A stretch of DNA of 47,692 nt. Source: an uncultured Gammaproteobacteria bacterium. Lineage in GTDB: Bacteria; Pseudomonadota; Gammaproteobacteria; Steroidobacterales; Rariloculaceae. Position 1 is the stretch's first letter; every line of letters starts with the position of its first letter. The notes under the pieces were generated by a model that ran no database searches, was not told the origin of the DNA, and worked only from the letters and a program-made list of their open reading frames with translations. Where the stretch lies: assembly GCA_913041665.1 (NCBI GenBank), contig CAJWKT010000003.1, positions 1 to 47,692 of the forward strand, in the 5' to 3' direction. The position numbers and the translations under genes are program-made. Shown piece by piece: positions 26,597-31,114 of this stretch.

Positions 26597-29563
26597 TCAA
26601 CTCAGGTGCCCGTGACAATGCTTATACTTCTTCCCCGATTTGCAAGGACATGGATCATTCCGCCCAACCTTCGGTTGCTGACGGATGTAAGGCGTGGCGG
26701 GCTTTCCAGGCAAAGATTGAGGGCGGGGAGCGCCTCCACCTAGAGAGATGGGACCAGGTGACGGGAATTTTCCCGCACCGTGCGGCAATTCAGGCGACGC
26801 TGCTGCAAGCGAGGGCGCCGCAGCATGCTGAAACCTCATGGTGCCAGTTTGTGCTGCACCCGAACCCAAAGCTTGGGCATCCTCTGGCCGCCTTATATGA
26901 ACCTTTGAGAGAAAAACAATTGTGTCGTATTTAACCCTATCAAGCATTTGACTAAACATTTCAAATGATTCTCGTTTGTACTCCTGAGCAGGTTTGCGCT
27001 GTGCGTACGCACGCAGATGTATCCATTGACGCAGATAATCCAGTGCTCCTATGTGGTCCTTCCAATGTGTATCAAGCTGGCGAAGCATCATTCCTCGTTC
27101 CAGCTCCCTCATTAATTCAGCGCCATGCTCGACAACCTTCGCTTCATAATCAGCAGAGACCCGCCCTACAAGTTCTTTTCGTAAATCTACCTCATTCGCT
27201 GCATCATTTTTCTCCAAAAATTTTTCGACATCGACGCGTGTACCAAATTCGTGTTCCAAACCTTTCATTAAGCCAGCCACATCCCACGCTTCCTCAGCAC
27301 TCTGGGGTTGAATGTACTCATCTATTACCAGATTAATGACCTCCTCACGGACACCAACAATAACATCCTCGATGTCATCGGCCCCCATTAAATCAGCGCG
27401 CTGCTCGTAAATAACCTTACGCTGATCGTTAGCTACATCATCGTATTCAAGTAGCTGTTTTCTTATATCAAAGTTGTGAGCCTCTACCTTACGCTGAGCA
27501 CGTTCTATCTGACGGGAAAGCAACTTACTCTCGATCGCTTCACCCTGCTGCATACCGGCCCGAGACAACAAGCGTTTTGTGCGCTCCGGATCACCGAAGA
27601 TGCGCATCAAATTATCTTCCATTGAAAGATAAAAACGGCTAGATCCAGGATCCCCTTGACGTCCTGATCGACCACGCAATTGATTGTCAATTCTTCTTGA
27701 TTCATGGCGCTCTGTGCCCACAATATGAAGCCCACCCGAGTTGATTACTTTCTCATGAAGGCCCCGCCATTCCTTGCGAGACTCTTTGATTACTGACTCT
27801 TCTGTTACATCTCGACGCTTAAGCTCTGCTTCTGTATTCCCGCCGAGCACAATGTCCGTTCCGCGGCCCGCCATATTAGTAGCTATAGTTACAGTGCCAG
27901 GTCGTCCAGCCTGAATGATGATCTCGGCTTCTCGCTCATGGTACTTAGCATTGAGTACTTGGTGAGGAATCTGTTTCTTTCCCAAAAGCTCAGAAAGATA
28001 TTCCGAAGTTTCAATAGATGTCGTACCAACCAATACAGGCTGACCGCGTTCGTGGCAATCCTTAATATCTTCAATGATGGCATCAAATTTATCTTTCTGG
28101 GTTAGATAAACGAGATCAGCACCATCATCTCGAATCATAGGCATATGGGTCGGAATGACCGCTACCTCAAGATTATAGATCTGCTGAAACTCATACGCCT
28201 CCGTGTCCGCTGTTCCAGTCATGCCAGCTAATTTTCCATACAGACGAAAATAATTTTGGAACGTGATCGAAGCAATGGTTTGATTCTCCTCCTTTACCCG
28301 AACATCTTCTTTTGCCTCAATAGCCTGATGCAAACCGTCAGACCAGCGCCTCCCCGGCATAGTTCGCCCGGTAAATTCATCAACAATTACGACCTCTCCT
28401 TCCTGAACGATATAATCCACCTCACGCCTGAATAAAGCGTGCGCTCTAAGTGCAGCTGTTAAATGATGCATTAGGCGGATGTTGGCTGCGTCATATAGGC
28501 TGTCTCCACTTTCCAGTACTCCTGCTTCAGCCAACAACTTTTCGACACGATCGTGACCCTCTTCAGTAAGATGTGCCTGCTTAGCCTTCTCGTCCACCAA
28601 GAAATCCCCCGGAATAATTAGCTGGCATTTTGCAGGCTTAGTCTTCGCGTCTATTTCCACTAAGTGCTGACCGTTTTGCTGAGCATGGTCGAGTGCATCT
28701 TGCAAAACCATCTCCCCTCTATCTTCGCCATTAACATCCATTAATTGCACCCTTCCTGCCTCTATTTCCTCGTTCGCAGCGCCGGCAGGGGGAGAGTGGA
28801 GTTTTAGCTTAGGGACTAGGTGGTTAATTTTGACATATAGCTCTGTGCTTTCCTCGGAACGCCCAGAAATGATCAACGGCGTCCTAGCCTCATCGATAAG
28901 AATAGAGTCCACTTCATCAACGATTGCAAACGCAAGCCCTCGCTGAGCCCTATCTTCTTTTCTAAGAGCAAGGTTATCCCTCAAATAATCAAATCCAAAT
29001 TCGTTATTGGTGCCATAGGTGATATCTGCCTCGTAAGCACGACGCTTGTCATCGGGCGTTTGTCCGCTCTTAACCACGCCTACTTCCATCCCTAAGAAAC
29101 GATAGATAGGTTCCATCCAGTCTGCATCGCGCTGGGCTAGGTAGTCGTTGACAGTTACGATGTGAACACCGCGACCAGTAAGCGCATTCAAATATGCGGG
29201 CAGCGTAGCCGCCAAGGTTTTTCCCTCGCCGGTTCGCATTTCTGCGATCTTTCCCACGTGTAAAACAATGCCACCAATAAGCTGAACATCGAAATGTCTC
29301 AGCCCCAGGGCTCTTCGTGAAGCTTCACGTACTGCTGCAAATGCTTGCGGTAGAAGTGTCTCCAAATCACCATCGGTCACATACTGACTCTTCAGTTCAG
29401 CTGTAATAGAACTAAGGTCCTCATCGCTGAGATCCTTAAATTCTGACTCCAAAGCGTTAATAGCCTTTACGAGCCTACCGTACCCTTTCAGCAGACGCTG
29501 ATTCCGACTACCAAAGATGCCACGAAAAGAATTCAAAATAGCTTTAATCAAGAAAAATACCAC
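26597..29563 (-). CDS. secA: Preprotein translocase ATPase SecA with IF3-N-like insert
   Basis: [52 protein letters not shown]...CHG; true start may be TTG at 29551. Confidence 0.99.
28613..28774 (-). other. IF3 N-terminal-domain-like insertion within the SecA PPXD
   Basis: 54 aa, ungapped, 20/54 identical to E. coli IF3 N-domain as recalled (NxEIxA..VxL....GE..G...L..AL..A...G..LVEI.....P..C). Confidence 0.88.
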
Positions 29564-29927: not shown

Positions 29928-30230
29928 ATGAGCCCTGGATCACCCCGTTGTCTAGCCGATCTACTCGCTGATGGACAGCTGGGAATGCTCGCCCGTGAAG
30001 CTAGAAGCCGTCGCGGAATAACGGAAAGAATTCGATTGCTGTTGCCCGTTGATCAAGCGAAGCACCTAATTTCTGCGAACGTAAATGATAGTGGGGACTT
30101 GGTACTGCTAATGGATTCTTCTGTTTGGGCTGCACGAGCACGATATTCAGCCGGACAACTAGGCGTAAATCGGCTCAAAGTAAAAGTCTTACCCAATCTT
30201 AATCAGTCAGATAATCCTGGTACCAACTGA
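29928..30230 (+). CDS. DUF721 / DciA-like protein
   Basis: [16 protein letters not shown] motif; convergent with lpxC and divergent from secA, the usual position. Confidence 0.75.
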
Positions 30231-31114
30231 TAAGAAATTGGTGCTTGATGAGCTTCTTCAAAAGCTACCTCTTCATAACACTGCGGCTGATCCAAAAGAC
30301 TTCTCAGCAGAGCATTATTGAGATTATGTCCTGATTTAAAACCACTGAATTCACCTAGCAAACATGCTCCCAGCAAATAAAGATCACCGATAGCATCTAA
30401 TATTTTGTGGCGAACAAACTCATCCCTGAACCGCAATCCATCTTCGTTGAGCACACGATATTCATCCATAACGATGGCATTCTCCAGACTGCCACCAAGA
30501 GTCAGGTCTCGAGCTCGAAGGGTTTCAAGGTCCGTCAGAAAACCAAAAGTTCGGGCCCTGCTGATTTCTTTTAAAAAAGAGGTGGTAGAAAACTCAAGGC
30601 TCGCACTCTGGCGGTGTCTGCGCAATACGGGGTGATCAAAGTCGATTTCAAAATTGACTCTAAAACCATTGTACGGCTTCAGTCTGGCCCATTTGTCACC
30701 ATCTCTAACCTCAACTGATTTACGGATCCGAATAAATTTCTTAGGTGCCCGTTGTTCCTCAATACCTGCCGATTGGAGCAAAAAAACAAACGGGGCGGCA
30801 CTACCATCCATTATAGGCACCTCAGCCGCCGTAACATCTACGAACGCATTATCGATTCCTAAGCCAGCCATAGCAGAAAGGAGATGCTCTACGGTCGCAA
30901 CTTTAACTTGGTCCCGCTGAATTGTCGTCCCGAGAGTCGTCTCAGTAACCCTGGTTGCTTTTGCAGGAATATCGACAGGGGTATTGAGGTCTATACGGCG
31001 AAAAATAATACCTGAATTGGGTGGGGCGGGGCGCAAAGTCATGTAGACCTTGACGCCACTGTGAAGACCTATGCCGGTAGCACGAATGGAATCTTTTAGT
31101 GTGCGCTGCTTCAA
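30203..31114 (-). CDS. lpxC: UDP-3-O-acyl-GlcNAc deacetylase
   Basis: [36 protein letters not shown]. Confidence 0.99.

Follow-up and report, generated by a model that had tools for sequence, protein, structure and literature searches.

A homologue of the IF3 N-terminal domain inside the preprotein-crosslinking domain of SecA, confined to one gammaproteobacterial order

The SecA protein encoded in contig CAJWKT010000003.1 of an uncultured gammaproteobacterium (assembly GCA_913041665.1; order Steroidobacterales, family Rariloculaceae) carries a segment truly homologous to the N-terminal domain of translation initiation factor IF3 (IF3_N). The 54-residue segment sits in a surface loop of the preprotein-crosslinking domain (PPXD), between a helix ending ...PKL and the strand GD[FY]xVDEK. 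Genomes with the same insert are confined to one order. We lean towards reading it as a folded appendage exapted onto the PPXD clamp, with a structural or interaction role that would differ from the ribosome and tRNA binding of IF3. The stretch of DNA analysed, 47,692 nucleotides in length, is referred to below as the window. The secA frame is uninterrupted on its minus strand, and the inserted segment, NEEIEAGRV...KCQLII, is encoded in frame within it. The gene and the parts of it discussed here are the following:

26597..29563, minus strand: secA reading frame, 988 aa from the GTG at 29563, with all Pfam SecA domains above their cut-offs.
28613..28774, minus strand: IF3_N-derived domain, 54 aa, residues 264-317 of the 988-aa frame (Pfam, hhalign, AlphaFold2, Foldseek).
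28775..28798, minus strand: linker HSPPAGAA on the N side of the domain, residues 256-263 (29 insert-bearing and 33 insert-free SecAs aligned).
28808..28852, minus strand: PPXD helix just N-side of the insertion, residues 238-252 (alignment to 2fsf_A, AlphaFold2).
28316..28612, minus strand: PPXD core C-side of the insertion, residues 318-416 (Pfam, alignment, AlphaFold2).

The public gene call starts at a TTG at 29551, four codons downstream of the GTG, which gives a protein of 984 aa in which residues 264-317 are numbered 260-313; the 988-aa numbering is kept throughout.

Homology to IF3 was assessed with profile and sequence searches. The Pfam family IF3_N (PF05198; cut-off 26.9 bits) scored 47.3 bits in the whole SecA (residues 264-330), 48.5 bits for the isolated 54 residues and 52.2 bits when the flanks were included. 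All five matches of a phmmer search of the PDB with the 54-residue query were IF3 chains, and no PDB SecA chain matched it. The best of them, 8jsg_A (IF3, residues 16-67, E 1.9e-4), aligns without gaps and with 20 identities over 52 columns, counted from the printed midline; its sister entry, 8jsh, is titled E. coli. An earlier annotation of this DNA, made from the letters alone (hereafter the sequence-only reading), had reported a gapless match to E. coli IF3 with 20 identities, and the two agree. In a profile-profile comparison, 20 SecA inserts of relatives were aligned with 18 infC N-domains of the same order by hhalign, which returned 99.4 %, E 1.3e-21 and 37 % identity over 52 gapless columns. 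The IF3_N alignment retained 18 of 20 parsed sequences, L115 and L118 being dropped as near-copies of L114 and L001, while L122 remained unparsed. When the insert-segment profile was searched against genomes, the next-best place was infC (E 3e-15 to 1e-12). Most copies of the insert retain the N..I start of IF3_N and the Cys that precedes its last strand; unlike IF3, the segment is embedded in another protein and is followed by neither a linker helix nor IF3_C. The genome has a separate infC on another contig (IF3_N 101.6 bits, in a 173-aa frame).

The predicted structure points the same way. For a 99-residue segment, AlphaFold2 (AF2) placed strands at 29-33 and 39-44, a helix at 45-54 and strands at 58-63 and 69-74. 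The corresponding elements of the full-length model are b1 271-275, b2 281-286, a1 287-296, b3 300-305 and b4 311-316, that is, the b-b-a-b-b order of IF3_N. Per-residue confidence (pLDDT) across the insert was 82-90 in both models. The ten best Foldseek matches in the PDB were all IF3 N-domains, bacterial and mitochondrial, including 1tif (E 4.5e-5, TM 0.71), 6o6d (root mean square deviation 1.1 Å over 54 columns) and 5lmn_X (0.9 Å over 56); the first match beyond IF3 N-domains had an E value of 0.34. Judged by these models, the insert has kept the IF3_N fold. Together, Pfam, hhalign, AF2 and Foldseek bear out the proposal of the sequence-only reading that an IF3_N domain lies inside the PPXD of an intact SecA.

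In E. coli the PPXD comprises residues 221-377 and forms a clamp that swings between the helical wing domain (HWD) and nucleotide-binding domain 2 (NBD2), as described in passages of PMC6620043 and PMC5963308. The PPXD part of the window protein aligns to E. coli SecA with an E value of 1e-73. The pre-insertion helix aligns to E. coli ...SSEMYKRVNKIIPHL and ends at 2fsf_A chain position 238; the alignment resumes at chain position 253, and the Pfam domain SecA_PP_bind covers window residues 305-416. Between ...PKL and GDF... the window has 65 residues, compared with 14 in 2fsf_A (chain positions 239-252). Behind the insert, the core opens with the native strand PGDFLVDEK directly after insert strand b4, and AF2 predicts PPXD strands at 321-324 and 329-332. 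The helix and strand that flank the insertion presumably line the signal-peptide groove.

The comparison within the order defines what was added. From the ISG motif to the aromatic residue (...PLIISG to D[YF]xxDEK), insert-free SecAs have 29 residues and insert-bearing ones about 85. Without the insert, most SecAs of the order have the sequence ...PKLxxQ-xEEDG-PGD[YF]xxDEK or a near acidic variant. The added material, about 56 residues, consists of the 54-residue domain and a short Pro/Gly-rich linker in place of the acidic xEEDG loop; in the window, linker and domain replace the ancestral acidic loop QxEEDG. Across insert-bearing SecAs the linker is variable, about eight residues long, and Pro/Gly-rich or acidic. 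Surveys of SecA insertions have been published. Among solved structures, the first PPXD strand maps to chain positions 248-253 (B. subtilis, E. coli), 262 (T. thermophilus) and 292 (T. maritima), and this variation in length at the start of the PPXD makes the region appear tolerant of additions. Unlike in canonical SecAs, the extra residues form an independent domain here. Three Geobacter-type SecAs (L068, L094, L098) have a loop of 42 residues at the insertion site, basic and hairpin-like (...EVEANTLSGKRKxYTGDF), with no relationship to IF3_N by eye; it is a further sign that the site tolerates additions.

Profile alignments run in register past the insert, with PGD[YF]xVDEK of SecA opposite DYGKFxFE of IF3, both in hhalign with flanks and in Pfam. 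The sequence-only reading took PGDFL for a possible recombination junction, which cannot be shown, since PGD[YF]x[VI]DEK is native SecA sequence found in every insert-free relative; the in-register run-on is chance or, at most, an old microhomology. No repeats flank the insert in a search for target-site duplications and other signs of mobile elements. An imperfect, non-flanking 21-nt direct repeat (81 %) occurs within secA at 28574-28594 and 28631-28651, with one copy in the insert (DAKTKPA) and the other in the native PPXD strand (DEKAKQA), and is probably due to chance.

We searched 151 genomes, sampled evenly across the window's order, with the insert profile. The insert was present at the same site in 41 of them, a tally that includes the unpublished, insert-free G039 (41 of 150 without it). 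The hits split cleanly into two classes: the 41 genomes, with E values of at most 6.3e-28 in frames longer than 600 aa, and infC, with E values of at least 3.3e-15 in frames of about 175 aa. A full-length SecA search concurs, giving one piece where the insert is present and secA complete and otherwise a match split near residue 318. Six of the 24 sampled families contain the insert (f1 15/15, window included; f10 12/14; f4 5/8; f15 4/13; f13 4/4; f7 1/1), and none of the other 18 does. In the window's family it was found in 24 of 25 genomes (23 of the 24 others in one search, plus G142), several of them single-contig; the one genome with no match, G023, is 73 % complete. It is retained in reduced genomes of about 1.2 Mb (G007, G019, G022). 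Outside the order, none of 397 class-level and none of 400 phylum-level genomes had it at E <= 1e-17, where up to 12 candidates were scored in each genome. The word chimeric in the sequence-only reading suggests a one-off; the survey shows instead an old trait present in 6 of 24 families of one order.

Ten of 80 named public contigs carry the insert, the other 70 having 29-45 residues at the site. Their titles are 'Gammaproteobacteria bacterium', 'Chromatiales bacterium', 'Woeseiaceae bacterium' (two), 'Proteobacteria bacterium' and 'Rhodospirillaceae bacterium' (one), so that named relatives include metagenome-assembled genomes (MAGs) labelled Woeseiaceae. The MAG with the alphaproteobacterial name Rhodospirillaceae (L028, JBBIJV010000108.1) has an insert that resembles those of the window's family, 55 % identical to the query segment, and its contig label or binning may be wrong. 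As to novelty, the earlier claim that the architecture was undescribed holds for print, in that literature searches, whose coverage did not extend to subscription papers, found no paper describing a SecA with an IF3_N insert. It does not hold for databases: PF05198 is precomputed on 120 of 120 database relatives among the matches listed, all of which are named simply SecA. The protein is a variant of a known machine, no new kind of system.

Selection on the insert was estimated by the Nei-Gojobori method in 10 close pairs, nine of which had a defined synonymous divergence (dS); in G017/G004 it was saturated. In the five pairs with dS below 0.8 for both, the ratio dN/dS (omega) of the insert and of the rest of SecA was 0.12/0.07, 0.08/0.08, 0.20/0.09, 0.21/0.055 and 0.12/0.05, with 0.016-0.10 for the PPXD core; in more diverged pairs it was 0.20-0.51 for the insert versus 0.055-0.18 for the rest. 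The insert remained below 0.52 in all nine pairs, its omega reaching about six times that of the rest of SecA and exceeding or equalling 1.7 times in eight of nine. These values indicate that the module is constrained, less so than its host; it is under purifying selection, which is weaker than that on the rest of SecA.

The weaker constraint also fits a tolerated passenger, that is, an IF3_N copy in a permissive surface loop with no function of its own, which persists because its precise removal is improbable and because selection acts on anything that destabilises an essential protein. We regard this account, the main rival, as possible, though unlikely. Conservation between families is mostly limited to the Asn at the N-terminus and to positions that are small or hydrophobic (N1, I4, V9, G20, A27, A31, L52), and mean column identity across families is 40 % in the inserts versus 75 % in IF3_N. 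Among the inserts, extra residues in internal loops (+8 and +17) are tolerated, as are shortened forms of 48-51 aa, and close relatives live with the ordinary 29-residue loop. A mere passenger is harder to reconcile with an omega that is still 0.08-0.21 in the five least diverged pairs, and with the retention of the insert in nearly all genomes of the window's family, the reduced ones included. If the module spread laterally into at least five lineages, some advantage is also the simpler reason. Were it only a passenger, the insert would be a curiosity of protein evolution.

The sequence-only reading gave the domain a different role, that of an IF3-like module providing an additional ribosome, tRNA or RNA contact for co-translational export, and we consider this improbable. 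Parts of PMC5037330 place IF3_N at the 30S platform or the tRNA elbow and, on the tRNA-free 30S subunit, near the platform with a possible contact to uS11 only. R25, Q33 and R66 of IF3 (E. coli numbering) contact the elbow of initiator tRNA, and R25 is described as invariant in a portion of PMC9723500. In the window insert the equivalents are Q, D and Q. The R25-equivalent is present in 18 of 18 IF3_N sequences of the order and in none of 29 inserts (12 have Glu), the Q33-equivalent in 18 of 18 versus 1 of 29, and the R66-equivalent in 18 of 18 versus 15 of 29. The suggestion that IF3 arginines had been replaced since capture is thus upheld, and the proposed ribosome- or RNA-binding module is weakened by the same counts: because the invariant tRNA-elbow Arg is gone from every copy, the module would no longer do the job of IF3. 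A Pfam scan of the window SecA detected no IF3_C match, and the basic N-tail, linker helix and C-domain of IF3 are absent. Surface residues are not conserved between families. The docking sites differ as well: in the sections of PMC6620043 that treat the ribosome, SecA docks at uL23 on the 50S subunit and makes its contacts through its N-terminal helix, helical scaffold domain (HSD) and C-terminal metal-binding domain (MBD), which are regions other than the PPXD, whereas IF3_N binds the 30S side. On the positive side, the fold is fully retained in the AF2 and Foldseek analyses, just over half of the inserts have the R66-equivalent Arg, several families have an Arg preceding the first Asn, as in IF3, and SecA is a known ribosome binder according to the same sections of PMC6620043.

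The origin of the insert was addressed with two trees. The first, built from 29 inserts and 18 IF3_N sequences over 54 columns, separated the inserts from IF3_N by a single branch (support 93/91, in 94 % of bootstrap trees), with the inserts clustered by family. End branches of the inserts were mostly 0.2-1.3, with two above 2, versus 0.03-0.67 for IF3_N, and most inserts have in common derived states such as GKxLG (IF3: GEQxG). The grouping of the inserts together, apart from the N-domains of the order's infC, fits a single capture. The second tree was reconstructed from SecA after removal of the insert columns (62 rows, 882 columns), with 29 of the 41 or more insert-bearing sequences, 27 insert-free ones (one to four per family) and six named outgroups; the partial SecAs L006 and L008, L079, which failed the motif filter, and G039 were left out. 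On this tree the trait needs seven changes, five of them forced by starred branches. Sister relationships join, for example, insert-bearing f4 g41 to insert-free f4 g17 (99*) and insert-bearing f15 g38 to f15 g47/g54, which lack the insert (95*); f1 is nested with two insert-free families, f3 and f11 (98*). Under an approximately unbiased (AU) test, monophyly of the insert-bearing SecAs is rejected (p 0.0014, delta lnL 124.8).

The alignment shows that the insert-free sisters have the common xEEDG-PGDY loop, and since such an acidic loop could not be recreated by deletion, lateral spread is favoured over many losses. We infer a single capture, after which the domain moved laterally between members of the order by ancient recombination inside secA, with no repeated loss. 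The age of the insert is indicated by its third-position GC (GC3), which tracks that of the host gene from 0.11 to 0.96 and equals it in every lineage. The patchiness of the trait over the SecA tree and the families would also be produced by several independent captures from infC at the same SecA loop, or by one ancestral gain and many losses, and either course is, in our estimation, very doubtful. Intermediate loops of 35-44 residues in a few insert-free SecAs (G034, G040, G029, G098) and an odd loop, about 25 residues longer, in G083 and G136 speak for them. Independent captures are contradicted by the clustering of the inserts apart from IF3_N, by their derived states and by their identical boundaries. 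Many losses are contradicted by the xEEDG-type loop of most insert-free SecAs (exactly EEDG in about half) and by the related acidic loops of the outgroups, which deletion could not recreate. Moreover, a hidden Markov model (HMM) of the 29 inserts found no remnant in the loops of 33 insert-free SecAs, its best score being 2.3 bits, elsewhere in the protein. The decayed-insert look of the loops in G034, G040, G029 and G083/G136 is, accordingly, unsupported, with no insert-HMM match. In G083:C2 and G136:C4 (L134, L135; f10, g46), where family mates carry the insert, the loop is a distinct acidic one (...EVEEEAPDPMNLRGPVEELSDEE-RGDF), about 25 residues over the usual length, with no IF3_N insert and no significant match to the insert HMM.

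The exapted appendage that we favour would have arisen by a single capture of an IF3_N copy into the PPXD loop of SecA, followed by an old lateral movement of the module among lineages of the order through recombination within secA. In the predicted arrangement the last strand of the module would connect it almost rigidly to the first strand of the PPXD. The module may tune the swing of the PPXD or offer a lineage-specific surface for protein contacts.

Several points weigh against this account. What was observed comprises the homology and fold of the insert, its age, its confinement to one order and its loss of the residues by which IF3 makes contact; the functional part is what we infer. The insert tree is short, at 54 columns, and has long branches, so fast-evolving inserts could attract one another. 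We detected no recombination tract: in 40-column windows beside the insert, identity tracks family kinship, with differences within +/-0.06, and lateral spread is consequently argued from the tree and the loops. The full-length AF2 model of SecA is poor overall (pLDDT 62, predicted TM score 0.34), and at this confidence the module cannot be placed relative to the clamp, SecY or the HWD. Net charge does not separate the inserts from genuine IF3_N cores; an argument from an acidic insert versus a basic IF3_N was dropped, given an IF3_N core mean of -7.3 and -5.0 for the insert core. The Arg at the R66-equivalent survives in 15 of the 29 inserts, and the insert could yet present a new RNA-contact surface. 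Finally, the purifying selection may reflect no more than the harm that a misfolded insert would do to an essential protein.

A variant in which such a new binding surface connects the SecA clamp with the translation machinery (ribosomal subunit, tRNA or secretory mRNA), and in which the module is a beneficial cassette that recombination within an essential gene has carried from lineage to lineage in the order, strikes us as a long shot; if true, the module would link translation to export as an accessory domain that spreads laterally. An assembly or binning chimera fusing infC and secA reads is refuted by recurrence in independent assemblies, the same in-frame architecture being found in the 41 genomes, some of them single-contig, in the ten named public contigs and in all 120 database proteins among the matches listed; the insert of the window is only about 34-37 % identical to the IF3_N of its own genome, and no point in favour of a chimera was found.

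SecA is among the best-studied molecular motors; its moving part, the PPXD clamp, closes on the substrate. The insert amounts to a natural experiment in which the clamp bears a foreign folded domain, about 60 residues in size, that selection maintains in dozens of genomes and that close relatives lack. It shows the load that the clamp tolerates and may reveal how the swing of the clamp is tuned. Under the exaptation that we favour, a piece of a translation factor would have been reused in an export motor, with its original contact residues lost. The scattered distribution suggests in-frame mobility of a domain between related lineages inside an essential gene. Experiments look feasible, given that carriers include single-contig genomes and relatives labelled Woeseiaceae.

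Apart from the insert, the window SecA is ordinary. It has the full domain set of canonical SecAs (E. coli 2fsf/6gox, B. subtilis 1m6n, T. maritima 3din), with SecA_DEAD, SecA_PP_bind, P-loop_SecA, SecA_SW and SEC-C above the Pfam cut-offs. The scores are 424 bits for PF07517, 305 for PF21090, 131 for PF01043 and 217 for PF07516, and the C-terminal zinc SEC-C motif (PF02810) is present at residues 968-985 with 34.7 bits. From this domain content and an identity of 64-72 % to other SecAs of the order, the protein would be expected to drive ATP-dependent translocation through SecYEG. Its neighbours (FtsZ, LpxC, a DciA-like open reading frame (ORF) on the opposite strand, a NUDIX protein and ZapD) form the usual ftsZ-lpxC-secA-mutT-zapD neighbourhood. 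The DciA-like ORF, 100 aa at 29928-30230 on the plus strand, lies between lpxC and secA, overlaps the 3' end of lpxC (30203-31114, minus strand) by 28 nt and scores 23.6 bits against Pfam DciA, slightly below the cut-off of 24. An Rfam scan of the window gave zero RNA family matches.

Three further observations concern SecA and IF3 in the wider dataset. In family f23 (G046, G062, G078), the SecA match is broken after about residue 583 of the query, in three pieces in G046 and G062; in the incomplete G078 there is only the piece that breaks near residue 583. This suggests a different lineage-specific insertion, in NBD2. The infC of the window's genome, at L001:1471-1989 (G000 contig C45), has a stop-to-stop frame that starts I-I-V-K-S-R-L-V-R-R-N, with no ATG, GTG or TTG start evident among its first printed residues; an ATT start is known for infC, in connection with its autoregulation. 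The third comes from a search of a representative library (50 % identity clusters) with the insert profile, in which 10 of the best 150 representatives were read, the other 140 spanning 62-297 aa. No full-length SecA was among these 150, because representatives were taken at 50 % identity. Four of the ten were SecA fragments with the insert and six were IF3-like, three of these (P0124, P0129, P0134) with two tandem IF3_N stretches. The tandem proteins measure 185, 249 and 284 aa; the first has no obvious IF3_C, and the second resembles an IF3 whose N-domain is doubled. Duplication of IF3_N has thus occurred in other settings too.

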